Positions 1,060-15,666 of a stretch of 64,000 nt of DNA are shown one piece after another. The stretch covers positions 576,001 through 640,000 of the forward strand of contig CAVPBK010000006.1 in NCBI GenBank assembly GCA_963701855.1, written 5' to 3'. Source of the stretch: Nitrospirota bacterium. Its GTDB lineage: Bacteria; Nitrospirota; Nitrospiria; Nitrospirales; Nitrospiraceae. Position numbers and translations under genes: made by a program. Position 1 is the stretch's first letter. Every line of letters starts with the position of its first letter. The notes beneath the pieces were generated by a model. The model searched no databases. It saw only the letters and a program-made list of their open reading frames with translations, and was not told where the DNA came from.

Positions 1060-1311
1060 ATGAAAGCGTATATCGTTCGCATTGGCAACTCCAAAGGCAT
1101 CCGCCTACCAAAAATTCTGCTTCAAGAAGCGCAACTTGAAAACGAAGTTGAACTCCAGGCCGAACCGGGCCGGATTCTGATTTCCAGGACGGCGCAGCCT
1201 CGAACCGGCTGGGCGGAAGCGGCCCAACGCATGCGGGCACAGGGAGAAGATCGCCTCCTCGACCCGCCGACAGCAACGCAGTTTGATAAGGAAGACTGGA
1301 AGTGGCGCTAA
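1060..1311 (+). CDS. mazE: AbrB/MazE-family antitoxin
   Basis: MKAYIVRIGNSKGIRLPK AbrB-type motif; GGAGG RBS; overlaps the toxin start. Confidence 0.88.
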   Translation: MKAYIVRIGNSKGIRLPKILLQEAQLENEVELQAEPGRILISRTAQPRTGWAEAAQRMRAQGEDRLLDPPTATQFDKEDWKWR

Positions 1312-1640
1312 CGAACTCGCCACCGACCCGAGGTGACGTCTTTCTGATTGACCTCGATCCCACCCGTGGCAGCGAAATCCGAAAAACAAGACCCTGCCTG
1401 GTCGTCTCTCCGGATGAGTTGAATCAACATCTACGGACAGTGATCGTCGCACCGATGACGACCGGAGGGAAAGCCTATCCCTGGCGTGTTCGATGCCGCT
1501 TTCGCGAGCGGGCTGGCTTCGTGGCCATCGACCAACTCCGCACAGTGGATAGCACGCGACTCGTAAAACGGCTCGGACGTGTATCTCCCGGTACTCTCAC
1601 ATCCGTATTGGCCATCTTGCAGGAAATGTTCACGCCGTAA
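1302..1640 (+). CDS. mazF: PemK/MazF-family endoribonuclease toxin
   Basis: RGDVFLIDLDPTRGSEIRKTRPCLVVS...VIVAPMT...DQLRTVD motifs. Confidence 0.93.
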   Translation: MALTNSPPTRGDVFLIDLDPTRGSEIRKTRPCLVVSPDELNQHLRTVIVAPMTTGGKAYPWRVRCRFRERAGFVAIDQLRTVDSTRLVKRLGRVSPGTLTSVLAILQEMFTP

Positions 1641-1673
1641 CCCCTGCACGCGAATCACTCCCGCACCAACCGG

Positions 1674-1928
1674 TCAATACTCGGCACCATCATTCAACTG
1701 CACCGTCGGCGTCACACGCTGATCGTTCAGCTCCACCACACGCCGAGAAATCCAGCGGCCATAGAATCGAAATGCGAGCACATAAATACAAGCCGCAGCC
1801 ACGACCAGCCCGAGGCGATTCACTTTTTCCTGTGGATTGACGAAACCGACCACAAAGGCGAACGCAACCCAACCCAGAACGGTGAGGAATCCCCAAGGCA
1901 CCAGCTTTAACGCCGAAATGTGCGGCAT
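1674..1928 (-). pseudogene. cstA: Truncated duplicate of the cstA 5' end (84 codons)
   Basis: FVVGFVNPQEKVN...VVAAACIYVLAFRFYGRWISRRVVELNDQRVTP is nearly identical to the N-terminus of the gene at 961; similarity ends after LNDG. Confidence 0.88.
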
Positions 1929-1987
1929 CCTAGCACAAGAGAGCGGAAGAACACCCCTGTCGGTCCGTTGCTCCCGGAGCAGAGAAG

Positions 1988-2110
1988 GGGATGGAGCCTG
2001 ATGATCTTATGTGCTCGCGCAACGCGCGGCCTCCGAAGGCCCTCGTTGGACGCGCACAGTGGAAGATCAATCAGCCCCCATCCCTGAAGAGAGAACGAGC
2101 GAGCTTGGAG
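1988..2110 (-). repeat. Structured hairpin repeat family A
   Basis: Reverse complement of the ACTG(C/T)GCGCGTCCAACGAGGGCC...GGCCGCGCGTTGCGCGAGCAC unit found at about 30.0, 59.0 and 60.9 kb. Confidence 0.85.
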
Positions 2111-3051
2111 GGAACACTGTAAAGCGGTACTTAATCGAATTCGCGCACCGAAATACATTCCTGCTATTCTCTGCGAGAAAGAGAGTGTGGTATTGAGTAG
2201 CAATGCCGAACCCTCCACCGCTTGCAACTTATATCTCCTTCAGAGCGTTCACAGGTGAGTCCTGCACACCTGATGAACTCAAAACATTCCTATCTAAATT
2301 CTTAAGAACTGAGGTTCTGTTCTTATGCGCTCTGTTGAATACAATTCTGGAAACATGGAGTGGCAAGATTCGGCGCGATGTGCATGACGATCTAATAGGC
2401 ATGGCTTTCTTGCCTGACGATGCAAACCGCCTCAAAGCCATAATATCAAAATCAACCGAGCCGGCATTCGTGTTTCACCGCCTGCAGATATTGTTCATCG
2501 CAAAGCAGGCTGTCATGAACTGTCATGACGACGGCAATGTTATTGATCCCTCGAACCATCTGCATTGGGGAGGTCTTGGCTTAGCTTTCTTAATGGCAAA
2601 CGATCTTCTTCATTTCGAATTTAATGACACGGAAAGAACTCTCCCACATTCACTGATAAGGATGGCTCACTCAATCCCAATGATGGAGTCCTCGGGAAAA
2701 ACCTCCTTGAACTACAAAGCGGGAAGGGCTTGGTTGATGCTAAAACAATTTAGCCCTTCTCCCCATAGCAAGGGTTATATCGATGTTGAGGGAGCTTTCA
2801 ACGCCGCAACTGGCCTATCCACTGAGGACTACCTATCACTTTGCGTCGGTATGGTGAGCCATTATCTTTCACTGGACTTCGAGCGCCTCAGGAAGAAAGA
2901 GGACAGCATTATGATAACCAAAGAATGGTTCACAAAAGCTGGGATCCGTCCCGTAACAGTGGATCACTTTTTTGAGGAGGTCTCCGCCTGACCCTCCCCT
3001 GATTTCATAGACACCTCCATAAGTGGGAGAATGATGAAATCGGAGGTCAGC

Positions 3052-3348
3052 ATGCCAAAAATAACGCGACGTCAGTTTACTGACGCATTCAAGTCCGAGG
3101 CAGTCCGGCTCACGCGGGAATCGGGCCGGCCGGTGGCCCAGGTGGCTCGGGAACTTGGGATTTCTGACAATGTGCTGTATCGCTGGAGGAGCGAACAGCA
3201 ACAGGTCGAATCCCAGGGCCGCACGCGCCAGGCGGTGCGGGTCGAGCAGGACGAGCTGACACGGCTCAAACGAGAAAACGAGACGCTGCGGAAGGAACGG
3301 GATTTTTTAAAACGTGCGGCGGCGTTCTTCGCGAGGGAATCCCAATGA
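3052..3348 (+). CDS. IS3 transposase OrfA (HTH)
   Basis: RRQFTDAFKSEAV...VARELGIS..LYRW; GGAGG RBS; TTTTTTAAAA candidate -1 slip site near 3303; ATGA overlap with orfB. Confidence 0.92.
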   Translation: MPKITRRQFTDAFKSEAVRLTRESGRPVAQVARELGISDNVLYRWRSEQQQVESQGRTRQAVRVEQDELTRLKRENETLRKERDFLKRAAAFFARESQ

Positions 3349-4208
3349 GATACCGCGCGATCCAGGAGCATGACCGTCGCTATCCGATCCGGTTGATGTG
3401 CCGCGCCCTCGCTGTATCGGCTGCGGGCTATTACGCGTGGCGCATACGGCCCGAGAGTACCCGTTCGGTGTCCGCCCGGACCGTGCTCTCGGCCATCCGG
3501 GTGATCCATCGAGAGTCCCGCGAGACCTACGGCAGTCCCAGCATCTGGGACGCCTTGATCAAGCAGGGACACCGCATCGGTGAACATCGCGTGGCCCGGT
3601 TGATGCGCCAGGACGGCATCCGTGCCAAGACCGTGAAGAAGTGGCGAGCCACGACGCAGTCCCATCATCGGTTCCCCGTGGCGGCGAACACCCTCAATCG
3701 CCAGTTCACGGTCGAGGCTCCAAATCGGGTATGGGCCGGGGACCTCACCTACGTGTGGACTACCGAGGGCTGGCTCTACCTCGCCGTCATCCTCGACCTC
3801 TACTCGCGCACCGTGATTGGCTGGGCCATGGGCACCAGGCTCATCGGAGATCTGGCCGAACGTGCCCTCATCATGGCGCTGGCGAACCGGATACCCGCGA
3901 CTGGGCTCCTGCACCATTCGGATCGCGGCAGTCAGTACGCCGCCACGAGCTACCAGCGTCTGCTCGGCGAGTATGGCATCATCACCAGCATGAGCCGCAC
4001 CGGCAACTGCTGGGACAACGCCTGTGTCGAGAGCTTCTTCGGGACACTCAAGCGCGAGCTCGTCTACCATCGGCATTACGCAACCCGTGAAGACGCGAAG
4101 CAAGACATCTTCGAGTACATTGAGGTGTTCTATAATCGGAAGCGCCGTCACTCGACCCTTGGCTATGTCTCCCCGGCCGAGTACGAAGCGAGGACGGCTG
4201 TGGCTTAA
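3345..4208 (+). CDS. IS3 transposase OrfB (rve DDE domain)
   Basis: WAGDLTY, HHSDRGSQY and DNACVESFF DDE motifs. Confidence 0.95.
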   Translation: MRYRAIQEHDRRYPIRLMCRALAVSAAGYYAWRIRPESTRSVSARTVLSAIRVIHRESRETYGSPSIWDALIKQGHRIGEHRVARLMRQDGIRAKTVKKWRATTQSHHRFPVAANTLNRQFTVEAPNRVWAGDLTYVWTTEGWLYLAVILDLYSRTVIGWAMGTRLIGDLAERALIMALANRIPATGLLHHSDRGSQYAATSYQRLLGEYGIITSMSRTGNCWDNACVESFFGTLKRELVYHRHYATREDAKQDIFEYIEVFYNRKRRHSTLGYVSPAEYEARTAVA

Positions 4209-5356
4209 CCCGGTGTCCACGGAATCGGGGGAAGGTCAGCCTTCCCCGATACGTTAGCCACTCGCTTCTCATCGAGAGACGGGGGTCCCTCCGACATGAC
4301 TTGGTTTCGCGACAAGCCTGTCTGCAGACTAAGGGAGGATGCAATATTTGCGTTGGACACGAAATGTCTTACGGAAAAACTAGATTCGGGGATTTTCTGG
4401 CGCGTGCACTCTCATTTGAAGAGTGGAAAGGACAAAGACAGCCTTCATAACTACTGGGGAATCGCATTTGAAAACTACCTCAACTGGCTCCTTGGACAGG
4501 CCTGCAGGGATAGCCGAAACAAATTCTATCCATCCCCTCATTACAAAAAGACGGGAGAGGAGGTCTGTGATGCTATCGTTGTTTGTGGCACGTCGGCCGT
4601 GTTTCTTGAATACAAAGGAAGCACATTTACTGCAACTTCAAAATACAAAGGAGATTTAAACGAACTTGCAGCAGAGATTGAAGAGAATTTGATTGGCACA
4701 GAATCGAAGCGGAAAGGTATTAGGCAATTAGCGAATGCCATCCTTGGCGTATTCGACAAGCAAACTCCTACCGTTGTCGCAGATGTTGACCTTTCAAAAG
4801 TCAGTACCATCTATCCCGTGCTCATTACACGGGACGAAATTGGCGGATGTTTTGGCATCTCGCCTTACCTAAACAAGAAAGCAGAAGCCTTCTTTTATCG
4901 GCGAAAGATCAAACCAAAAATTGTCACACCTATCTTTTGCCTTTCAAGCGAAGGGATCGAGACAATTTCAGCATATCTTCAGGATGACACTCTGTCTCAT
5001 CTTCTCCAAGGATGGTACAGGGAAGACCCAGGCCTCCATTGGTCGTTTCCCGCAGTAGAGGATTCTGTCATTGGCTCTCGTGGTTACAAGACGAACTCGG
5101 ATCTCGACACTGCATTTAACCAGGTGTTTGAGAATGCTATACGAGTCTTGTTCCCAAACTCGAAGCCTACCAGCCTCTCTTGAATTATGGAGGATAAAAG
5201 GTGCTGAGAACCATTCTTTTCATACTTGTAATCGCTCACCCCGTTTGATTCCCTTCTCGCTTAATTAAATAGTGGACAGCCAACCATGTAATAGCCGATT
5301 CTAATCGCCGGCGGGATATAAATGACCCTTCTCAGGTCGCTCGCTACTCTCTCCCC

Positions 5357-5516: not shown

Positions 5517-5879
5517 ATGGAACAGACCAGGCCCTACCAACGCAGCCTCTACCGCCTGACAGTCACCTGCCCAGTGATGTACTGTGTGACGTCGACGGTC
5601 GGCGAAGGAACGATTAAAAATCTTTCGGCCGTGGGATGCACGATCGAAACGGGCCAACCCCTGCTGACAGACCAGAACGTCGCATTGCGCCTGATGCTCC
5701 CCGATCATCACGAGTCGCTACCGATCGATGAAGCCTACGTGCGGTGGGTGCATGGTAATCTGGCTGGAATTGAATTTGTCGAAGTAGAACGTACCGCGAA
5801 TCTCCGGCTGCACGGTTTCGTATGGGATGGGATGGTCCAACACTTCCAGTCGATTCAACAGAAGCGCGCAACATCTTAG
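5517..5879 (+). CDS. PilZ domain protein
   Basis: RxxxR (RSLYR) and NxSxxG (NLSAVG) c-di-GMP motifs; VRW and GIEF strands. Confidence 0.85.
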   Translation: MEQTRPYQRSLYRLTVTCPVMYCVTSTVGEGTIKNLSAVGCTIETGQPLLTDQNVALRLMLPDHHESLPIDEAYVRWVHGNLAGIEFVEVERTANLRLHGFVWDGMVQHFQSIQQKRATS

Positions 5880-5944
5880 CGGGCTACGGAAAAACCATTT
5901 TGGCATAACAGCGCTTGAATAGGGGCAAGGGGAGAGCTTCTCCG

Positions 5945-6070
5945 CAGGATGCTCAAAAAGTCCGTCTAGCAAGGCCGCAGCGCGTGAAGGCCCGATGCGT
6001 ACCCTTGCGGTACGTTGAGGGTCAGAACGATGCGAGAACGACTCTGGCGGACCCTTAAGGCATCCAGCTA
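5945..6070. mobile_element. MITE-like repeat family B (CAGGATGCTSAAAAAG ends)
   Basis: Left end CAGGATGCTCAAAAAG, degenerate right end; internal sequence shared with 7223-7405. Confidence 0.7.
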
Positions 6071-6075
6071 GGGAA

Positions 6076-7095
6076 TCAGGAGCCATTTCCTGTATTGTCG
6101 GTCCGGCCTTCCTGAATTGCCGCTGTCCGCCCGCCGTCGAGAGCCAGACAGAGTAAGCCTAGCCCGATCCAGACTAACTCGCGGAACCGCCGGAGCAGCG
6201 CGAAGGTGATGCCTGTGACGTCGGAATAACCAAAGGCGCTCAGCAAGAGCATGTTCCCGCCGTCTTGGGCGCCAAGGCTGCCGGGGATAAAGAAGGTGCC
6301 GCCTTTGATAAAGACAGAGAGCGCGCCGATGGAGATGGCGGAGAGGGCCATAGCAGGGCCACCCAGATAATAGATGATGACATACACTTCCAACGCTTCC
6401 GCCATCCACCCAAGAAAGAACAGCCCGGTGGAGGCATAAAAGGCCGGACGGTTGTCGCGATAGAAGGTTAAGATCGTTCGATCCAATGACCGTAACTTTT
6501 CCTCACGCGCTTCGAGATAGGCAATCTTCAACCCGACCTTCCGCAGAAATCCCAAGAGCCACGTAAAGAGTCCCTGCCGCTGCACGAACACGAATGCTGC
6601 AGTTCCGAAGGCCAGCAACCCCACACTCACAAGTGCCGCGGCCACGATGTGACCGGATGAATTGTTCCCGCCTAACAGCCACACACCCGATGCAATGCCG
6701 AGCAAAATAAAGAGCACCTCGGCAATCGTCATCGTTGTTTTCGCAATAATGACCGAGGCAAGCCCCTCGACCATCGGCACATGGTGTTTCTTGAGGAGAT
6801 AGGCCTTGAGCGGTTCGCCCCCGGCGTAGGCGGTCGGGGTCGTCATGTTCACCACTTCACCAGCAGTCCGAATTGCGAGCACACGCCAGAACGGAATACC
6901 CTTCGCCGACGGCCCCAACGTGACTTTCCACCCGTACGCTTCGACGACATACATGATGAGGGAGGGAATCAGCAGGACAAGGAGCGCGACCGGCCCAAGT
7001 TGCGCCGCTGCATCGTAAATTTGCCCGGGGCCAATATGCCAAACGATAAGAAGGAGGGTGAGGAGACCGACAACGAGTAGGAAAAGTTTTAGCAC
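6076..7095 (-). CDS. Lysylphosphatidylglycerol-synthase-TM / flippase-like membrane protein (UPF0104, HpnL-like)
   Basis: About 8 hydrophobic segments; NMTTPTAYAGGEPLKAYLL and IPGSLGAQDGG motifs. Confidence 0.8.
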   Translation of the reverse strand: MLKLFLLVVGLLTLLLIVWHIGPGQIYDAAAQLGPVALLVLLIPSLIMYVVEAYGWKVTLGPSAKGIPFWRVLAIRTAGEVVNMTTPTAYAGGEPLKAYLLKKHHVPMVEGLASVIIAKTTMTIAEVLFILLGIASGVWLLGGNNSSGHIVAAALVSVGLLAFGTAAFVFVQRQGLFTWLLGFLRKVGLKIAYLEAREEKLRSLDRTILTFYRDNRPAFYASTGLFFLGWMAEALEVYVIIYYLGGPAMALSAISIGALSVFIKGGTFFIPGSLGAQDGGNMLLLSAFGYSDVTGITFALLRRFRELVWIGLGLLCLALDGGRTAAIQEGRTDNTGNGS

Positions 7096-7222
7096 GCTAG
7101 GCTAGAAACCCACGGTGAGAACAAGCAGAGTAGGTTATAGGGGAACGTATCGTTATCTCCACTCCTTCAGCAAGAGAGCGCTTTAATGGCCTACACGTCT
7201 GGGACAAAAGGCGTATACGCTG

Positions 7223-7405
7223 CAGGATGCTCAAAAAAGGCCGTCCAGCAAGGCCGCAGCGAGCGAAGAGGCGAGGAGGTACCAACCACACTTTGTGTGG
7301 CCGTTCGCCCGTAGCATGGGTCTTGGCGAACGGAAAATACCCTCCAGTACTTCCGAGCCTCTGAGCGATGCGAGAACGACGCTGGCGGACTTTTTCAGCA
7401 TCCTG
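7223..7405. mobile_element. MITE-like repeat family B
   Basis: TIRs CAGGATGCTCAAAAAAG...CTTTTTCAGCATCCTG; abuts the TAA stop at 7406. Confidence 0.8.
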
Positions 7406-8833
7406 TTAAGCACGGGTCCTGGCGGACGGTCTGATGACCCAGAGCATCAGGAGCGAGAACACCACAGATCCGGTCGCGGCCAGACCGAGAAACCAATCGA
7501 GCTTGCCGATCACAGCGAACACCAGCACGACGACGGAAAAATCCCGGCTCGCGACGTTCTTAAGCATGAAGTCCGACCAAGCAGCCTGCACCGGTGTCTT
7601 CCATCCATTCGAAGACTTGATCCTTTGCGCACGAGTGACGAGCCAAAATGAGAGCCCATTTCCAAGGACCGCTGCCGCACCCAGAGCAAGAGGAACCCAG
7701 GCATAATCGGTTCCAGCCATACGCAGGTAGGAGCCCGTGGCAATGCCGGCAAAGATCGCCATGTGCACCACGTTGTCCATTGTGATATCGAGCCAGGCCC
7801 CGAACGGCGATTCGGTAAACGTCAGCCTGGCCACTTCCCCGTCACAGCAATCGATGACCGCCGCCAGTTGGAACAACAACGCGGCCATGATGCCCGCGCT
7901 GTAGGTCCCGACGCCAAAACCGGCGGCCGCGGCCAACCCAACCAGGGTCGCCAGGATCGTGATGACATTTGGCGAGAAGCCTGCGGCGAGAAAGATACGC
8001 GTGAACCAGCGGGAGACCTTCCGATTGAAGTACCGGTCGACGAAACCCTCGAACTCGCTTTTGAGGGAATTGAACAGCTTCCTCTCAGCGGCCTTGACAT
8101 CGACAGCATCTCTCACGTCCTGATACCAGTGGGAGCGGTTCGTCTCCGTAGATATCACCCGCACATGCCCGTCCACCGCAGCCCGCTCGAGCCATGGACG
8201 AATCGGCAACGTACCGGTTTCCACATCGACTTGGCCGACAGTGCGCATAAAGCCGGATGGAACTACCACCAGATCTGTCGCTACCAACGCTGCGTCGTCC
8301 TGTTTCGATGTGATCGAGAGGAGTCGTCCTGCCTGCACCTTCATACGCACACTCGACCGTCGTGACTGTCGGTCTCGCTCGCTATCGGCTCGTGCCACGA
8401 CGATCGCCTGGCCCTCTTGCACCTCATGGCGCAGGCTCTCGATCAAGGGGCCAGCAAACACCCCCTGTACGCCGGACAGGAGACAGAAGCCGCGAATTTC
8501 AGAGGCCAGCGCCTCCCATGTGCGTGGATCATCCAACGGAAACTCACGAATCGGCAACCAGCGCACAGGAATTGTCACGCGTGAACCTTTGCTCAACGCC
8601 TGTTTGAGCTGATCTTCCTCTGGCCCGACCAACACCATAAGCTGTCGAATACCGGCGCGCTGCAGTGTCAACACCGTCCGCTGAAACAGGCCTATGCCCA
8701 CCACGCTGGTGAGCGGACCCACCTCCCCGGCGTACAATCCAGCCGGCTCACCGAACAGACTCACTGACGGCAAGAGAATCGCCGTGTTTAATCCCTGGAG
8801 GCCTGTCTGCTTCTGAACTGTGCTCTCGCTCAT
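7406..8833 (-). CDS. CDP-alcohol phosphatidyltransferase with a degenerate N-terminal nucleotidyltransferase-like domain
   Basis: DCCDGEVARLTFTESPFGAWLDITMD matches DG-x2-AR-x8-G-x3-D-x3-D; SPNVIT motif. Confidence 0.88.
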   Translation of the reverse strand: MSESTVQKQTGLQGLNTAILLPSVSLFGEPAGLYAGEVGPLTSVVGIGLFQRTVLTLQRAGIRQLMVLVGPEEDQLKQALSKGSRVTIPVRWLPIREFPLDDPRTWEALASEIRGFCLLSGVQGVFAGPLIESLRHEVQEGQAIVVARADSERDRQSRRSSVRMKVQAGRLLSITSKQDDAALVATDLVVVPSGFMRTVGQVDVETGTLPIRPWLERAAVDGHVRVISTETNRSHWYQDVRDAVDVKAAERKLFNSLKSEFEGFVDRYFNRKVSRWFTRIFLAAGFSPNVITILATLVGLAAAAGFGVGTYSAGIMAALLFQLAAVIDCCDGEVARLTFTESPFGAWLDITMDNVVHMAIFAGIATGSYLRMAGTDYAWVPLALGAAAVLGNGLSFWLVTRAQRIKSSNGWKTPVQAAWSDFMLKNVASRDFSVVVLVFAVIGKLDWFLGLAATGSVVFSLLMLWVIRPSARTRA

Positions 8834-8935
8834 GATCGGACGATCCTTCGTATTCGGGGGAAGGGCTATTCCAAATCACCCCGCCATCCTAACCGCCAGT
8901 ACCCCGTTTACCCCGATACTCCACTATCCCCGCTG

Positions 8936-9655
8936 TTAGAGTTTCGGCAACACATCCCGTTCCGCTTTCGTCACATCTTCCATAAAATCGATTTCGGTCC
9001 AGGGAAGTCCACCGATCTTTTCATGCCCGACTTTGACGTCACGGAAAAATCCCACAAGCGCATCTTCATATTCCATCTGCCAGGCCTCACGATCCACATG
9101 GGTCTTGAGCGACGCAATCACATGCGGCGCATCGGCATGCCGGACCTTGAGGAACCCCACGCCTTCTCCGGCATAATCATAGTGTAACGGCATCGTTTTC
9201 GTCAGTGCAATCACGCGCCCGCCTTCGACCACGACCATGCACTCTTCCCCTGTCTGCTTAACGGTGTCGTCCATGAGCAGCGCGTTCTCATAGGGAGATT
9301 GTACCAAACGGCGCAAGATCTCTTGATGAAAGAGCACGTCTGCATCCATGACGATTGCGTCGTCATCCAATGCCGTGCGCGCGATCCAGAGCGAGGAAAT
9401 GCTGCCGCGATGGAACTGCTCATTCACAAGGAAATTCACGCGCATGCCACAAGAATTCGCTGCCACAGCCGCGCGAATCATCTCCTGCTTGTAGCCCACC
9501 ACCATGTCGGCACAGTGAATACCGACGCTCCGAAGCGACGTGAGGTAGCGATGCAAGAGGGTCTGCCCGCCGATCTCGATCAGGCACTTAGGCCGATGCT
9601 GCGTGACCTGCCACAGGCGCTTCCCGACCCCGGCTGCGAGAATAACGGCTTTCAT
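8936..9655 (-). CDS. LicC/PntC-like phosphocholine/phosphonate cytidylyltransferase
   Basis: MKAVILAAGVGKRL...PKCL, MDADV, WTEIDF; ATGA overlap with the upstream aminotransferase. Confidence 0.85.
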   Translation of the reverse strand: MKAVILAAGVGKRLWQVTQHRPKCLIEIGGQTLLHRYLTSLRSVGIHCADMVVGYKQEMIRAAVAANSCGMRVNFLVNEQFHRGSISSLWIARTALDDDAIVMDADVLFHQEILRRLVQSPYENALLMDDTVKQTGEECMVVVEGGRVIALTKTMPLHYDYAGEGVGFLKVRHADAPHVIASLKTHVDREAWQMEYEDALVGFFRDVKVGHEKIGGLPWTEIDFMEDVTKAERDVLPKL

Positions 9656-10734
9656 ACTGTGCCGCAAATCCGTTCAAATGCGTCGAGGAATCCGACCAAC
9701 TGCGCCTCCGTGAGGGCTCCCATATTCGCGACACGGAAAATTTGGCTCTGGAGCTGGCCTTGACCCGCATAGATCACGTAGCCTTGATCCTTTAGCCGAT
9801 CGTGCAATGATTGATAGGTCACACCCTCGGGAAGGTAATAGGCGGTGATCGTGTTGGACAGTTTGTCGGGGGACAGGAGCGGCTTCATGCCGAGTTTCGC
9901 CATACGGTCTCTGATTAAGGTCGCAACTTTCTTGTACCGTTGAATCCGCTTGGCGACCCCTTCCTCCATGAGTTCGTTCAAGGCTTCGTCGAACGCGTAA
10001 TAGACCTGCACAGCCGGCGTAAACGGAATCGTCCCACGACCTTGGTCGTCCACATATTGGGTGATGTGAAGATAGATCGACCGTCTGGGGTAGGCACGCA
10101 TCCGCTCCAGAAATCCCTTGCGGACGAGCACGAAGGACACACCGGGGAATCCCTGGATACATTTTCCCGCTGTACCCGCCACCATGTAGATATGCGACCC
10201 GGCGATATCCAGCGGCTCCCCCGCCAAGGCACTGACCGCATCAAGAATAAACACGCGGTTCTGGCTGTCCACGACATCCGCGATTTCTTTGACCGGATTG
10301 ATGAGCCCGGTGGTTGTTTCATGATGGACCATGGCAACTGCATGGGCTTCCGGGTGTTGCCGCAGTGCGAGCCGCAACCGTTCAGGGTCCGGCTTTGTCG
10401 TCCAATCGTATTTAAGTTCGGACACGCCCAGGCGATAGAGGCCGGCCATCTGGGAAATGCGTTCGCCGTATACGCCGTTGTTCAGCACCAGCATCCGTTT
10501 GCCGGATGGGAGCGCCGACATCACGGCGGACTCGACTGCCGCAGTACCCGATCCAGTCAACACCACCGCGGCATAATCCGCTTCCGCCCCCGGCACAAAG
10601 AGCTTTAGCAGCTTCGCCTGAATCCCGAGCAAGAGCTCAGTAAATTCCGATTCCCGATGGCAAACATCCGGACGCAACAGTGCCTGCCGCACCCGCTCCG
10701 ATACGTTGACCGGTCCTGGATTCAATAGAACCAC
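9652..10734 (-). CDS. Class V PLP aminotransferase, 2-aminoethylphosphonate transaminase-like (PhnW/AepZ)
   Basis: LLNPGP, GSGTAAVES, VHHETTTGLINP, DAVS, GTAGKCIQGFPG. Confidence 0.85.
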   Translation of the reverse strand: MVLLNPGPVNVSERVRQALLRPDVCHRESEFTELLLGIQAKLLKLFVPGAEADYAAVVLTGSGTAAVESAVMSALPSGKRMLVLNNGVYGERISQMAGLYRLGVSELKYDWTTKPDPERLRLALRQHPEAHAVAMVHHETTTGLINPVKEIADVVDSQNRVFILDAVSALAGEPLDIAGSHIYMVAGTAGKCIQGFPGVSFVLVRKGFLERMRAYPRRSIYLHITQYVDDQGRGTIPFTPAVQVYYAFDEALNELMEEGVAKRIQRYKKVATLIRDRMAKLGMKPLLSPDKLSNTITAYYLPEGVTYQSLHDRLKDQGYVIYAGQGQLQSQIFRVANMGALTEAQLVGFLDAFERICGTV

Positions 10735-10838
10735 AACACCCCCCGTTAATCGTTAACCGTACAATGTTAATCGCAGAAAGGGCCAACCTTCATTCTTTAG
10801 TCGAACTGCCATTCACAAATACCGTTGTTCGAGTCACG

Positions 10839-11417
10839 TCATTCGATCGCCTGCATGAACCGTTTCGTAATATCCGGTGGATCCAGCATCACGCGCCCGG
10901 CATCTTCCACCATCTCGTTGACTTTCACCAGCAACATGCTCGGCCCGTCTTTCTTCAGCATATCTTTGAATTCATAGACGAGATCTTCGCGTTCCCGCAC
11001 TCGTTCAACGTTCACATACCCGGCTGCCTTCGCGACCTTCTCAAGCGGGACCACATTGGATATCGTCGGCTGATTGCCGGTTGTGCCGTAGACTTCATTG
11101 TCGAACACCACATGAATAAAATTCTTCGGCCTCAGCGCCCCCACCGTCGCGAGCGTCCCCATGCCCATGAGGACGTTCCCGTCGCCGTCGAAGACGATCA
11201 CTTGTTTATTCGGCTTCGACAACGCCACGCCCAGTGCAATCGCCGCCGCCGATCCCATCGACCCGATCATATAGAAATGAGTCGGCCGGTCGGCAATCTT
11301 TTGCGCTTCACGAGATGGAAATCCATTACAAATGACGACGGGCTGGTCGGTGAGCAACTCTAACAGCGCGGCCATCGCCATGGCCCGGCTCTGCATGGTA
11401 CCTTCTTCGGGCCTCAT
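10839..11417 (-). CDS. TPP-dependent phosphonopyruvate/sulfopyruvate decarboxylase, beta subunit
   Basis: FYMIGSMG and the GDG...DN TPP motif, YGTTGNQPT. Confidence 0.88.
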   Translation of the reverse strand: MRPEEGTMQSRAMAMAALLELLTDQPVVICNGFPSREAQKIADRPTHFYMIGSMGSAAAIALGVALSKPNKQVIVFDGDGNVLMGMGTLATVGALRPKNFIHVVFDNEVYGTTGNQPTISNVVPLEKVAKAAGYVNVERVREREDLVYEFKDMLKKDGPSMLLVKVNEMVEDAGRVMLDPPDITKRFMQAIE

Positions 11418-11449
11418 CGATCCTGCTCCTTCATCGCCCCCTCACACCG

Positions 11450-11947
11450 CTAAGGATGTAACCCCTTCACGACGCCCTTTGTAATATTCAGTGCCACGGG
11501 AATCCGTTTCTTCATAAATGTCTCGGCCACCCACTTCAGATCGTCGATGGCCGTCTTTTCCGTCAACGTCCGATGAGGGATCTTCATTGTATCAAGAAAC
11601 TGCGGCATGACTTCGCCCATCACCAGATGCTCCGGCGCATCTTTGCCGCCTTGACCACGCCAGGACACGATCAGAATGCAAGGCTGCCGATAGATATAGT
11701 TGAGGGAGATGAGCGTATTCAGCGATGTCCCAAGCCCGGAGTTCTGCATCAAGACGGCGGGAATCTTGCCGGCCATATAAGCCCCGGCTGCCATGGCTAC
11801 GGCTTCGTCTTCGCGCACCGCTGGGGTGTAGAGACGCCGCTCCATCAACTCGGCAATGATGCCACCCAGGATCGAGTCTGGAACCCCCGTAAAGAAATCC
11901 ACCCCCATATCTTGAAGCGCTTGGACAAACGCATCGCTTTCAATCAT
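11450..11947 (-). CDS. Phosphonopyruvate/sulfopyruvate decarboxylase, alpha subunit
   Basis: FFTGVPDS, MQNSGLG, SWRG..GKDAPEH; start taken at MIESD. Confidence 0.88.
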   Translation of the reverse strand: MIESDAFVQALQDMGVDFFTGVPDSILGGIIAELMERRLYTPAVREDEAVAMAAGAYMAGKIPAVLMQNSGLGTSLNTLISLNYIYRQPCILIVSWRGQGGKDAPEHLVMGEVMPQFLDTMKIPHRTLTEKTAIDDLKWVAETFMKKRIPVALNITKGVVKGLHP

Positions 11948-12067
11948 GTATCGAATCCTTGCCCCAACGCACATAGAAAAACCGGCGCATTATAAGCTAT
12001 GCCTTCGGACATTCTCAACAAAACTGCGGGAGTTGCGCCATACGATTGGCCATGGTAGCGTTCTGCC

Positions 12068-12601
12068 ATGATCGGACTACAAAGACCTCATATAGGTCGA
12101 TACCTGAGCCTGCTGGGACTCCTGCTCTGTCTGAGCCGCCCCTTCCCTGTCCATGCGGTGCCAATGGTGAATGATCCGAACGGTTTTCAGAGCCTGGCCT
12201 GGGGTATTGCCCTGACCACGAGGCCGGATCTGGAAATCGCCAGAGCAGGCCCGCATATAAATGAATACCAACTGAAAGACAGCCCGCCATCGTATGCCGG
12301 AGTCCCGGTTGAGAGTCTCCATTTAGTATCTGTCGACGAGCAATTCGCCCGCGTGACCATCCACTATCAAGGTGAGGGTCGGCACAAACAAATCCTCGCC
12401 TACATGGAGCGACAGTTCGGTTCTCTTGAGCGCATCCCAGGACAGATGATGCGGGGCCTCAATCAGCAGTATACGTGGCGCGGGACTGATACTGAGATCA
12501 ACGTGACGTACCATGCGAACACGGAGAGGGGATTTATCTTCATCGACAGTCGAACCCTCGCCCCTCTGTTCAACGACCATATATCCGATTCGGCGGAGTA
12601 A
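12068..12601 (+). CDS. Hypothetical secreted protein (paralog of the next gene)
   Basis: Signal peptide ending VHA; NDPNGF..W, FARVTI.YQG and RG.IF motifs shared with 12603-13142. Confidence 0.75.
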   Translation: MIGLQRPHIGRYLSLLGLLLCLSRPFPVHAVPMVNDPNGFQSLAWGIALTTRPDLEIARAGPHINEYQLKDSPPSYAGVPVESLHLVSVDEQFARVTIHYQGEGRHKQILAYMERQFGSLERIPGQMMRGLNQQYTWRGTDTEINVTYHANTERGFIFIDSRTLAPLFNDHISDSAE

Positions 12602-12602
12602 C

Positions 12603-13142
12603 ATGCCGCGCTGGCCCCGCACAGACCATTGGATCCGCCATGTCTCCCTCATCATCCTTTTCTTCTCGCTCATCCTGCATGGCACCCCGGCTTTCGCCGT
12701 GCCGATACAGAACGATCCAAACGGGTTCGAAGGAATCCCCTGGGGCGCAACGTTTTCAGAAACCGATACGTTCGTGAAAGTCGAGGACACCGGTCGGTCT
12801 CAAATCTATGAATTAAGGACTGGGGCTCCTCTGCTTGGCACAGCACAGGTCGACTCCATGCAATTCGTAACTTCCGAAGGCAAGTTTGCACGTGTCACCA
12901 TCCGTTACCAAGGCAAGGCGACTCACGACAAGATTCTTGCCTATCTCCAATCCCTCTATGGCCCGCTCGACCACACACCAGGACAGATCGCCGGCGGTTC
13001 CGTCAAATTATTTAGCTGGACTGGGTTCGAAACCGATGTGACCCTCCGATATGAGACCGGCATCGATCGCGGCATCATTTTTTTCGAAAGCCAGGAGTTC
13101 CGCCGAAAAATGACCGACAGCAATTCAGCCACCGTGTTTTGA
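12603..13142 (+). CDS. Hypothetical secreted protein (paralog of the previous gene)
   Basis: Signal peptide ending AFA; same motifs; ATG 1 nt after the upstream stop. Confidence 0.75.
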   Translation: MPRWPRTDHWIRHVSLIILFFSLILHGTPAFAVPIQNDPNGFEGIPWGATFSETDTFVKVEDTGRSQIYELRTGAPLLGTAQVDSMQFVTSEGKFARVTIRYQGKATHDKILAYLQSLYGPLDHTPGQIAGGSVKLFSWTGFETDVTLRYETGIDRGIIFFESQEFRRKMTDSNSATVF

Positions 13143-13178
13143 CTGACACCCCCTGCCTACCTATCTGAAGCATCTTAG

Positions 13179-13440
13179 CGGGATGCTCAAAAAGTTCAGA
13201 CTTCTCACCCGCCCAACCCTGGCGCGCCAAGACGCGCCGTTCCACAGGCAAAGCCGCAGACGATGAAAGCACCGGAGGCGTAGCCTCTTCTCACCCGCCC
13301 ACCCCAAGCTGCCAAGACAGCTTGTTCTCCGAGTGGGCTACGTTGAGGATGCTTTCGAGGTGAGAACGCTGCCTGGCGAAAGGCGCGTCTCGGCGCGCCA
13401 GGGTTGGGCGGGTGAGAACGGAGACTTTTTCAGCATCCTG
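13179..13440. mobile_element. MITE-like repeat family B with internal CCCGCCCAACCCTGGCGCGCC inverted repeats
   Basis: Preceded by TTAG; TIRs CGGGATGCTCAAAAAG...CTTTTTCAGCATCCTG. Confidence 0.8.
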
Positions 13441-13602
13441 CCTGGAAACCCTTGCCAATTGTGCCAGGACCCCCTACTCCCCCCTCTTCCGATGGGGCTT
13501 TTATCCCCTCTCATTGGGGATTGTTGAAATTTTTGAATACGGTATTCTCAAACTGTCGCCGGGGGATAGCAGAACCTCGGCGGAACCACTGAGGAGGCAC
13601 TG

Positions 13603-14019
13603 ATGAAGCTGGTCCACCCCATTCTCAAAGTCAACCACCAGAAAGCCCATTCGCTCTTGGATCGGCGCTATGCCGAACGGGTTCCGATTGGGTATCGAAT
13701 CAGCTACTCCGGGGAAGAAGGTGCACGGATCGTCAAAGGAGAGGGATTCCTGAAAGATCTCTCCAAAACTGGCTGCAAGATCCTGGGCGCGACCACGAGC
13801 TCGCTCGGTAGCAGGCTCACTCTGCTCCTAGACTTTGAAGATGGACAAGCCTCTTTGCGCCTTACCGACGTCATCGTCTCCTGGATTTCCAAAGACTCCT
13901 TTGCCGTCAGATTCCCCAAGTTGTCAGCAGAAGAACGAAGGCGGGTACAAGAAGTTATCTGGAAAAATGTCAGCCTGTCGTCCTTAGACGATCAACGGAC
14001 TGCGTTCCGCATCATCTAA
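13603..14019 (+). CDS. PilZ domain protein (tandem 1 of 4)
   Basis: RRYAER and DLSKTG. Confidence 0.85.
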   Translation: MKLVHPILKVNHQKAHSLLDRRYAERVPIGYRISYSGEEGARIVKGEGFLKDLSKTGCKILGATTSSLGSRLTLLLDFEDGQASLRLTDVIVSWISKDSFAVRFPKLSAEERRRVQEVIWKNVSLSSLDDQRTAFRII

Positions 14020-14047
14020 GCATCGATCCAACACCACGGAGAAAATC

Positions 14048-14446
14048 ATGGGTCCTCACACCCCTGCACCCGTCACCAGCGTCGCTGAATTCCCGGGCCA
14101 ATCCGATCGCCGGCATAACAACCGAACCCCGGCGCTCTTCTCTTTGCTCTATTCCGGTATAAACACTGGCCAAATGCTGATAGGTGATGGCACCGCCTCT
14201 AACCTCTCACGAAGCGGGATCGGCATTCGCGGGAACCGATCAGTCACACCCGGCATGGAAATGGCCCTCTTTATTGACCTTCCTGGACTGGGAGAGCCAC
14301 TGTGCATTGCCCAGGGCCGCGTCTCCTGGGTTGAGGGACGTCGATTTGGAATGGAGCTGGGACCCATGAAGCTGGAGGGGGAGAAGCATCTGCAATTCTT
14401 CTTGTGGGATCGCGTCACCCCTTCAGATCGAGATAGTGACATCTGA
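14048..14446 (+). CDS. PilZ domain protein (tandem 2 of 4)
   Basis: RRHNNR and NLSRSG. Confidence 0.85.
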   Translation: MGPHTPAPVTSVAEFPGQSDRRHNNRTPALFSLLYSGINTGQMLIGDGTASNLSRSGIGIRGNRSVTPGMEMALFIDLPGLGEPLCIAQGRVSWVEGRRFGMELGPMKLEGEKHLQFFLWDRVTPSDRDSDI

Positions 14447-14475
14447 GACCGTAACAGGAGCACGGAGGTGTCCTC

Positions 14476-14862
14476 ATGAAACGAGAACAGATCACATCTA
14501 GAAACGGGCTTCAGTCTGTGACAGGAGCGATCAATCGGAGGCAAGACCCTCGCCCCTCGGTAGAGTTCGGATTGATGTACTCAGCTCAAGACCATTCCGG
14601 TGAGATCCTCATGGGCGATGGCATGGTGACAGATCTCTCGCCCACGGGATTAGGCATTCGCGGCAATGCCCCTGTCACACCGGAGATGGAACTCACGATT
14701 TTTCTCTACCTCCCCGATGGAAAAGACCCGCTCTTTGTGATGGAAGCGAGGGTGGCCTGGACTGCAGGACATCGGTTCGGAGTCGAGATCCTGAAGATGA
14801 ACTTACGGGAACGAAACCGACTCAGTTCTTTCTTACGCTCGAATCTCGTGCATTCCGATTAG
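14476..14862 (+). CDS. PilZ domain protein (tandem 3 of 4)
   Basis: RRQDPR and DLSPTG. Confidence 0.85.
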   Translation: MKREQITSRNGLQSVTGAINRRQDPRPSVEFGLMYSAQDHSGEILMGDGMVTDLSPTGLGIRGNAPVTPEMELTIFLYLPDGKDPLFVMEARVAWTAGHRFGVEILKMNLRERNRLSSFLRSNLVHSD

Positions 14863-14889
14863 ATCGATTGCCTGCTCACGGAGAACTCG

Positions 14890-15348
14890 ATGACCACACG
14901 ACGAAAGACGCACAAACGAGCGACGACCCATCGCCAAATTCAGGCCACTGACCGCAGAGCGGCTCAGCGGGTCCCTGTTCAAATCATGGTTCGATTTTCA
15001 GCAACAGACAGCTTCCAGCATGTTGGCCAGGGGGTTGCTCTTGACCTGTCTGAGAGCGGGTGTAAACTCTGCAGCACACTGATGTTGCCACTGGGAAGCT
15101 TCTGGGATCTCTACCTGACAATCCCCGAGACATCCCATCCGATCCTCATCTCGAAGGTTCGGGTAGTCCGGGTCGAGGGAAACGAATACGGAATCGAATT
15201 TCTTCTCGTCACGGAACGAGAGCGAACCCGGTTACGCCATTTCATCTGGAAACATATGAACCACTCCACAGTCAGAGGTGGACCTCCATTATTTACCCTC
15301 GTCGACCATTCATCCATACATCGGCCACGTCTCAAATCCCTGCTCTAG
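14890..15348 (+). CDS. PilZ domain protein (tandem 4 of 4)
   Basis: RRAAQR and DLSESG. Confidence 0.85.
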   Translation: MTTRRKTHKRATTHRQIQATDRRAAQRVPVQIMVRFSATDSFQHVGQGVALDLSESGCKLCSTLMLPLGSFWDLYLTIPETSHPILISKVRVVRVEGNEYGIEFLLVTERERTRLRHFIWKHMNHSTVRGGPPLFTLVDHSSIHRPRLKSLL

Positions 15349-15586
15349 TCCGCATGATTCATGAAGCTTCTGCTGCACGCGCGGATACGCGGCTATGACA
15401 GGCCATCTCGCCGTTTAGCCCTTTGACATACTGTTGGGGACTGGCACTCTTCTTCTCGGTGCCTATCCCCGTCTGAAGAGCGGGGCAGGCACTGCCGCAG
15501 ACGGCAGAGCCAGTCCCTGGCCTCCGTGTGCCGGTATCACTTCACGTCTGCACGCTTTCGCGACGAAGGTTCATGAATCATGCGGG
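15349..15586. mobile_element. MITE family E with CTAG target duplication and an internal GGGACTGGC...GCCAGTCCC hairpin
   Basis: CTAG|TCCGCATGATTCATGAA ... TTCATGAATCATGCGGG|CTAG. Confidence 0.8.
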
Positions 15587-15633
15587 CTAGAGCGATTTTG
15601 ACCTAATGCTTGTTCTCTAGAAACGCTGCGTGC

Positions 15634-15666
15634 TAGGATAATGGTGAGTGAGCACTTACTTACCAT
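15634..15666 (+). promoter_or_regulatory. Candidate -10 and TetR operator palindrome
   Basis: TAGGAT followed by the imperfect palindrome ATGGTGAGTGAG-CA-CTTACTTACCAT (15641-15666), which overlaps the tetR start. Confidence 0.55.

Follow-up and report, generated by a model that had tools for sequence, protein, structure and literature searches.

An operon with the genes of a probable phosphonolipid pathway

A stretch of 64,000 nucleotides from a Nitrospirota bacterium (GenBank assembly GCA_963701855.1, contig CAVPBK010000006.1, positions 576,001 to 640,000), here called the window, carries at positions 6076-11947 six genes that a reading of the sequence alone had described as a co-oriented, phosphonolipid-type operon without a gene for phosphoenolpyruvate (PEP) mutase, pepM. 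An ORF check confirmed six intact, co-oriented open reading frames (ORFs) on the minus strand. They encode the two halves of a putative thiamine pyrophosphate (TPP)-dependent phosphonopyruvate decarboxylase (Ppd alpha and beta), a 2-aminoethylphosphonate (AEP) transaminase-like enzyme (AEPT), a PntC-type cytidylyltransferase, a CDP-alcohol phosphotransferase and an HpnL-like membrane protein (Table 1), and are separated, in that order, by 32, 104, -4, 102 and 310 nucleotides. Relatives share this gene order, even ones that belong to a different order of the class, so the arrangement is not due to chance. A scan of contigs for the locus returned solely close Nitrospira-type loci, 88-99% identical, and the host genome (G000; Nitrospiraceae, 97% complete) carries amoA; from these two features we infer that the host is a comammox Nitrospira.

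Table 1. Positions of the operon genes and associated features. Coordinates refer to the window unless a contig is named.
Feature	Position	Strand	Details
HpnL/UPF0104 flippase-like membrane protein, 339 aa	6076-7095	-	PF03706, 109.6 bits; TIGR00374 above cut-off
CDP-alcohol phosphotransferase, 475 aa	7406-8833	-	PF01066, NF041135; laid out like IPCT/DIPPS or AF2299, with a soluble domain at the N terminus
PntC/LicC-type cytidylyltransferase, 239 aa	8936-9655	-	PF12804 NTP transferase; 4-nt overlap with the AEPT stop
AEP transaminase-like class V PLP enzyme, 360 aa	9652-10734	-	TIGR03301, 349.3 against a cut-off of 360.8; Lys191 intact
Ppd beta, RhiF/ComE-like, 192 aa	10839-11417	-	TIGR03846 187.4, TIGR03297 175.5, both below cut-off; GDG...N TPP motif
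Ppd alpha, RhiE/ComD-like, 165 aa	11450-11947	-	TIGR03297 129.7 bits, TIGR03845 109.8, both below cut-off
Sigma-70-like promoter candidate	11989-12018	-	42 nt before the ppd-alpha ATG; 11/12 consensus matches, 18-nt spacer; consensus match only
Two paralogous genes, divergent from the operon	12068-13142	+	No Pfam/NCBIfam match; in relatives they stand between the operon and the atypical pepM
Slot of the atypical pepM, vacated	13143-15640		Four PilZ-domain ORFs there now; synteny with G079 and G061 on either side
Canonical PepM-NTP-transferase fusion, 544 aa	G000:C3:191841-193475	-	TIGR02320, 392.5 against a cut-off of 319.55 bits; EDKLFPKTNS

A canonical pepM on a different contig

No pepM occurs in the window, as the sequence-only reading had stated: a search of the whole genome with TIGR02320 gave a sole match above the cut-off, on contig C3. 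This protein, which ends in a nucleoside triphosphate (NTP) transferase domain, holds the only EDKxxxxxNS motif among the ORFs of at least 60 amino acids in G000. The genome-wide motif search that the earlier reading had proposed thus yielded a pepM elsewhere, a finding which that reading, together with phosphonopyruvate specificity, had itself set against its idea of another substrate, and its other branch, an unlinked pepM serving the synthesis of AEP lipids, gains support. A tblastn search found no further ppd, PntC or CDP-alcohol phosphotransferase partner of the operon type in G000, either beside the pepM on C3 or elsewhere. The solitary mutase on C3 and the operon that lacks one complement each other within the same cell.

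In relatives a pepM-like gene stands near the operon, and in the corresponding slot of the window tblastn (E 1e-3) detected no remnant of it. The canonical pepM of G000 is followed (C3, 189419-191679) by genes for a carbamoyltransferase of the NodU/CmcH type and a membrane protein of the SxtJ family and by a very small ORF, an arrangement present only in this genome among the loci examined. The carbamoyltransferase adjoins pepM in one of 38 canonical loci, and it and the SxtJ-like gene were rejected as members of the pathway.

Canonical pepM and an atypical pepM-like gene alternate across the family

The distribution of the genes was followed in 141 Nitrospiraceae genomes of at least 92% completeness. 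Nearly all (140) have ppd-beta, and 80 have a canonical pepM; 49 carry a lower-scoring PepM-like fusion (237-291 bits). At least one of the two types is present in 128 genomes, neither in 13, and both in just one, against 27.8 expected under independence; a Fisher p for this co-occurrence was set aside, as kin are not independent. In 46 of the 49 genomes the distance between the atypical gene and ppd-beta is 1.9-3.6 kb; in the remaining three the gene is on another contig. Of the canonical matches, 81 in all, not one comes within 5 kb of ppd-beta, and the 13 on the same contig are at least 0.95 Mb away, measured on the linear sequence. The motif EDN..KRCS was read directly in 23 of the 49 atypical genes, the other 26 being classed by score or similarity.

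A tree of 77 operons shows 11 changes of state between canonical and atypical, and among the 63 rows bearing a PepM, seven of nine independent contrasts are clean swaps and two show no difference; the sign-test p of 0.016 was set aside, since all 63 rows carry at least one PepM and the opposite outcome is impossible. A fused ppd lies directly behind the canonical pepM in 10 of 38 loci (three of them selected for it), and all four tested pass TIGR03297; the other neighbours scanned there vary from lineage to lineage and are housekeeping genes with no relation to the pathway. A genome of another order has the six operon genes together with the atypical type, which suggests that the latter is the older partner. 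The EDN..KRCS gene upstream was probably the older member of the set, lost in lineages that have a canonical pepM, to which a fused ppd is in some cases attached. Transfer of the canonical pepM between genera was considered: the FastTree tree looked discordant, but approximately unbiased (AU) tests did not reject a single clade for any of the five groups tested (p 0.43 for g1, 0.19 for g32, 0.10 for g18, 0.77 for g10 and 0.77 for f1). These tests give transfer no support, and the two genes may instead have coexisted in an ancestor and been lost reciprocally. Displacement or reciprocal loss would, either way, imply that the two proteins do the same job.

The single genome with both types (G044) has, at locus L068, a separate canonical pepM, 49% identical, in a cluster with an NTP transferase, an Fe-alcohol dehydrogenase/APS kinase, an epimerase and a sulfatase. 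This cluster is likely a hydroxyethylphosphonate glycan route, and a separate route of that kind would explain the co-occurrence.

The atypical protein has the loop EDNxxPKRCS in place of the EDKX5NS motif and stays below the TIGR02320 cut-off, and it scores equally for models of PepM and of phosphonopyruvate hydrolase. Its best match in the Protein Data Bank (PDB) is 5unc, a PEP mutase. In all eight rows aligned, Trp44, Asp58, Asp85, Asp87, Glu114, Lys120, Arg159 and His190 (numbers that we take to be those of the mussel PepM) are kept, and the only active-site change is from Asn to Cys in the loop. The K.CS loop is present in 119 of 120 homologues. Among the best 150 clusters at 50% identity (P0121-P0270), 93 have EDK..NS, 23 K.CS, 20 another ..NS form, 2 K.CG and 12 other loops, so that the Cys-loop type is spread over many such clusters. 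One Cys-loop protein, P0098, is source-labelled Nitrospira moscoviensis, a cultured species. PEP mutase activity is predicted for the atypical protein on account of its mutual exclusion with canonical PepM, and the Cys-loop protein is probably a second class of PEP mutase.

Fate of the operon where PepM is missing

Genomes that have neither PepM offer a natural experiment on the substrate. One of the 13 (G085) also lacks ppd-beta and PntC, and in two (G074 and G149) PepM fragments are cut by contig ends. A clade of seven (L124-L130: G084, G098, G108, G076, G087, G099 and G073) keeps only ppd-alpha, ppd-beta and the transaminase. PntC was not found in any of the seven, nor were the transferase and HpnL in the five tested, the searches for these last two having been run without a positive control. 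Lys191 of the transaminase is lost in all seven and kept in 69 of the 70 others. The lone exception (G050, locus L074) belongs to another family; no PepM was found in this genome, its operon has no pntC, and its transferase has lost the catalytic domain, the N-terminal domain and hpnL being retained. The genes for ppd-alpha, ppd-beta and the transaminase persist there too as open frames. The survival of ppd and AEPT in PepM-less genomes was considered as support for another substrate, and was rejected in that role once the loss of the catalytic lysine had been seen.

Two further genomes, G088 and G100, have a fused Ppd of their own (TIGR03297 465 bits in G088), and there the split enzyme has accumulated changes at conserved columns (12-17 per subunit in G088, 11-12 in G100), with none in AEPT. 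Catalysis that decays with the loss of PepM, and a split Ppd that has decayed where a canonical one is present, both point to phosphonopyruvate as the substrate. Since four genera keep these genes under purifying selection after loss of the catalytic lysine, it may be suggested, tentatively, that Ppd-alpha, Ppd-beta and AEPT have a second, non-catalytic job as possible pseudo-enzymes, a reading to which we give less than even weight.

Evidence for the individual enzymes

Ppd alpha is most similar in the PDB to 9iz3_A, the alpha subunit of a phosphonopyruvate decarboxylase, and shows no changes at 61 conserved columns, and Ppd beta is most similar to 9iz3_B (RhiF). The five best PDB sequences for the transaminase are all AEP transaminases. 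Class V pyridoxal phosphate (PLP) enzymes have their Schiff-base lysine at the position equivalent to Lys191, and the Lys-to-Met form 9kka aligns at the same column; on these two grounds Lys191 is read as the Schiff-base lysine. Pro237 of the transaminase occupies the position of the Arg of the RFT motif in PhnW and Tde AEPT, and a literature search for what this Arg does in PhnW found no paper. The enzyme also has a His-Arg pair at residues 26-27, which presumably resembles that of phosphate-binding class V enzymes.

The best PDB match of the cytidylyltransferase is 6pd1 (Tde PntC-AEPT), followed by LicC; it is a second, stand-alone PntC, in which Asp106 and Glu197 are conserved and AEP specificity is predicted. 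The CDP-alcohol phosphotransferase has the full DxxDGxxAR...GxxxDxxxD motif at residues 328-353, kept in 68 of 69 homologues, and is closest to AF2299 and IPCT/DIPPS. The HpnL-like protein has about five hydrophobic segments at a strict threshold and reaches 152 bits with the HpnL model TIGR03476, below the cut-off of 196. A prediction of a complex of Ppd-alpha and Ppd-beta with AEPT scored 0.00 and gave no answer, and it is not used as evidence.

Relation to known phosphonate gene clusters

The nearest described systems are the Group 1 phosphonolipid clusters (Yu et al. 2013, cited second-hand), which correspond to the Burkholderiales_CDP-OH families and have a predicted, not an isolated, product (10.1101/2021.04.07.438883). 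Their seven-gene core consists of a Ppm-PntC fusion, Ppd, AEPT, a second PntC, a CDP-alcohol transferase, hpnL and an alpha-ketoglutarate/Fe(II) oxygenase (10.1101/2021.04.07.438883). The Nitrospiraceae system resembles these clusters and that of a Nostoc cyanobiont (PMC5987646) in combining a Ppm-PntC fusion, a putative Ppd and AEPT, a second PntC and two phospholipid genes. It differs from Group 1 in that pepM is unlinked, lying on a different contig in G000, Ppd is split and relatives use the atypical PepM. No alpha-ketoglutarate/Fe(II) oxygenase is among the operon genes, and the oxygenases that adjoin the operon in family f3 have no tblastn match in G000; AEP rather than 1-hydroxy-AEP is therefore expected. 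With ppm unlinked and this oxygenase not found, we do not file the operon as a member of Group 1, and it is best read, from its gene content, as a variant of these predicted clusters.

In the Pnt pathway AEP is activated by a PF12804 cytidylyltransferase, the PntC of Tde1415 and Ari1348, and about a third of Ppm proteins are fused to an NTP transferase (PMC6697681); such a fusion and a PF12804 cytidylyltransferase predicted to act on AEP occur here too. Unlike in that pathway (PMC6697681), PntC and AEPT of the operon are separate genes, Asp takes the place of Tde Glu104 in PntC, the RFT Arg is missing from AEPT, and a CDP-alcohol phosphotransferase comes next in the route. For the split Ppd the precedent is RhiEF, a heterodimeric phosphonopyruvate decarboxylase (PDB 9IZ3/9IZ4; PMC12141560), in which, as in ComDE, the pyrimidine-binding and the pyrophosphate-binding domain are each encoded by an ORF of their own, one next to the other (PMC12141560). 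RhiEF feeds rhizocticin and ComDE coenzyme M synthesis, whereas the split Ppd of the operon precedes a transaminase and lipid-tailoring genes, and its halves score below the ComDE cut-offs (109.8 against 147.95 for TIGR03845, 187.4 against 221.5 for TIGR03846). The transferase shares with AF2299 and IPCT/DIPPS (PDB 4O6M, 4MND) a soluble N-terminal domain, a membrane domain and a complete catalytic motif; unlike in those proteins, the cytidylyltransferase is a separate upstream gene and the predicted donor is CMP-AEP.

Proposed pathway and its alternatives

We favour, as the more probable account, a two-locus route from PEP through phosphonopyruvate, phosphonoacetaldehyde, AEP and CMP-AEP to a membrane lipid with an AEP head group. 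The stand-alone PepM-NTP-transferase on C3 would convert PEP to phosphonopyruvate, the split TPP enzyme would decarboxylate this to phosphonoacetaldehyde, the PLP enzyme would yield AEP and PntC would activate it to CMP-AEP. These four steps are established chemistry, assigned here from genes, motifs, co-occurrence and joint decay. The CDP-alcohol phosphotransferase would then place the AEP group on the hydroxyl of a membrane lipid, by analogy a diacylglycerol-like glycerolipid, and the HpnL-like protein may flip the product or handle it further; acceptor and HpnL role are the conjectural part. That carbon-phosphorus chemistry takes place, whatever the acceptor, is very probable.

Several observations weigh against this pathway. 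Family scans agree with the gene labels of the sequence-only reading, but the Ppd halves, AEPT and the HpnL-like protein each score below the curated family cut-off, and Ppd beta scores higher for sulfopyruvate decarboxylase (TIGR03846) than for TIGR03297. All 77 AEPTs compared have Pro in place of the RFT Arg; PntC, with Asp104/Glu197 against Glu104/Glu196 in the Tde enzyme, is half LicC-like at the two amine-binding acids; and the nearest structures of the transferase include a soluble-diester enzyme. Three genomes of 95-99% completeness (G143, G174 and G176) have an intact operon and no PepM that could be found, likely owing to assembly gaps. The seven genomes without PepM discussed above form one clade (support 0.999 on the 77-operon tree), and their remaining genes have open frames under purifying selection that is weaker than in controls (dN/dS 0.03-0.22, controls 0.01-0.12) yet well short of neutrality. 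In five other genomes with their own Ppd the split enzyme is intact (0-2 changes), so that its decay is a single event. The 77 genomes of the tree, moreover, were hand-picked to mix states, and relatives among them are not independent.

Some of these features would suit a PepM-independent route in which 3-phosphohydroxypyruvate is turned into phosphoethanolamine and CDP-ethanolamine, the exotic branch of the sequence-only reading: the missing RFT Arg and the His-Arg pair of AEPT, the LicC-like Asp104 and the three intact operons without a detected PepM. A canonical pepM is present in G000, though, two separate lineages without PepM have lost Lys191 and PntC as well, and psd, found in all five genomes tested including the host, gives phosphatidylethanolamine its usual route. 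This proposal, like that of any other 2-oxo acid as substrate, is very unlikely. A ComDE-like sulfonate route (sulfopyruvate to sulfoacetaldehyde to taurine), for which the scores of the beta subunit (187 against 176) would speak, and catabolism of AEP are still less credible and were rejected: in five of five genomes there is no ComA, no cysteate synthase above the cut-off (best 68.5 against 324.9) and no PhnX above the cut-off. A cytidylyltransferase, moreover, suits a phosphonate, not a sulfonate.

Two other proposals keep the AEP pathway and change its acceptor. CMP-AEP might be used on a soluble polyol, giving a phosphonate diester solute similar to di-myo-inositol phosphate (DIP), or on a lipid-linked glycan precursor, as the IPCT/DIPPS-like layout of the transferase, its best matches (AF2299 and IPCT/DIPPS) and the carbamoyltransferase behind pepM in G000 could indicate; this is improbable, given that a flippase-like gene follows the transferase in three of four families, that the two are fused in one assembly (G003), that the carbamoyltransferase is found in just one of 38 canonical loci and that no glycosyltransferase is among the six genes. 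Only marginally less probable is bacteriohopanepolyol as the acceptor, with an AEP-hopanoid handled by HpnL. The protein at 6076-7095 matches the HpnL family, the squalene-hopene cyclase gene shc is present in all 14 genomes tested, and in operons of families f3 and f4 the transferase is separated from pntC by a gene of the squalene-hopene-cyclase fold, joined in several by a Rieske gene; hpnL genes, which have no known function, are over-represented near shc (PMC12324291). In G000, however, shc lies about 112 kb from the operon, tblastn found no counterpart of the f3/f4 gene and the TIGR03476 cut-off is not reached; hpnL is also part of the Nostoc and Burkholderia phosphonolipid clusters (PMC5987646). 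The fuller proposal, a Nitrospirales AEP-hopanoid fed by canonical PepM or an interchangeable Cys-loop mutase, which would provide the first function for HpnL, is unlikely to the same degree.

The fused reading frame in G003 (L092:5129-7459) joins transferase and HpnL in 776 amino acids, residues 1-40 being read in a different frame; it may be a true fusion or a mistake of the assembly. In L098 (G012) and L102 (G023) the operon ends in three hpnL-like copies in tandem. The insertions of the squalene-hopene-cyclase fold are at L065:3631-4922 and L075:7436-8413, in families f3 and f4, and f3 also has a 2-oxoglutarate-Fe(II) oxygenase upstream.

Surroundings of the operon

Three sigma-70-like sites occur in the operon region against a shuffle mean of 3.8, that is, no excess. 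The RNA runs compared shared at most 0.20 of the sequence words. The first gene of the divergent pair at 12068-13142 falls in unnamed Atlas clusters, mostly of Nitrospirota. Five stand-alone PilZ-domain genes flank the operon (5517-5879 and 13603-15348). The island at 1060-5183 holds a pair of genes resembling MazE/MazF, the 5' part of a cstA gene (1674-1928), of which a fuller copy begins near position 886, and an IS-type transposase (3031-4208) separating two ORFs (2203-2991 and 4296-5183), perhaps the halves of a single interrupted gene. About 100 pattern matches genome-wide belong to a non-coding element that is bounded by terminal inverted repeats, is mostly 120-125 nucleotides long and resembles miniature inverted-repeat transposable elements; copies lie at about 5925-6070, after hpnL, at 7205-7405, between the transferase and hpnL, and on C3 at about 193490-193616, just before pepM.

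Implications

The puzzle of an operon without PepM, and hence of new chemistry, dissolves. Phosphonate surveys retain only proteins with EDKX5NS (PMC6697681; 10.1101/2021.04.07.438883) and classify them by neighbourhood (10.1101/2021.04.07.438883). Such filters would drop the 49 genomes with the atypical gene, and most of the 80 canonical ones would appear to them as a lone pepM. A search of titles and abstract openings, with most subscription journals outside its scope, found no report of phosphonate capacity in Nitrospiraceae.

What gives the system its value is that two first enzymes swap places, and that these filters would largely miss a phosphonate capacity common to the family; further interest attaches to a cluster type without a known product and to an HpnL without a known function. 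Whether the Cys-loop protein is a PEP mutase becomes, given the near-perfect swap, a question for one assay. With a PepM of one type or the other and the decarboxylase in 128 of the 141 Nitrospiraceae sampled, ammonia oxidisers among them, these widespread nitrifiers may be an overlooked source of phosphonates.

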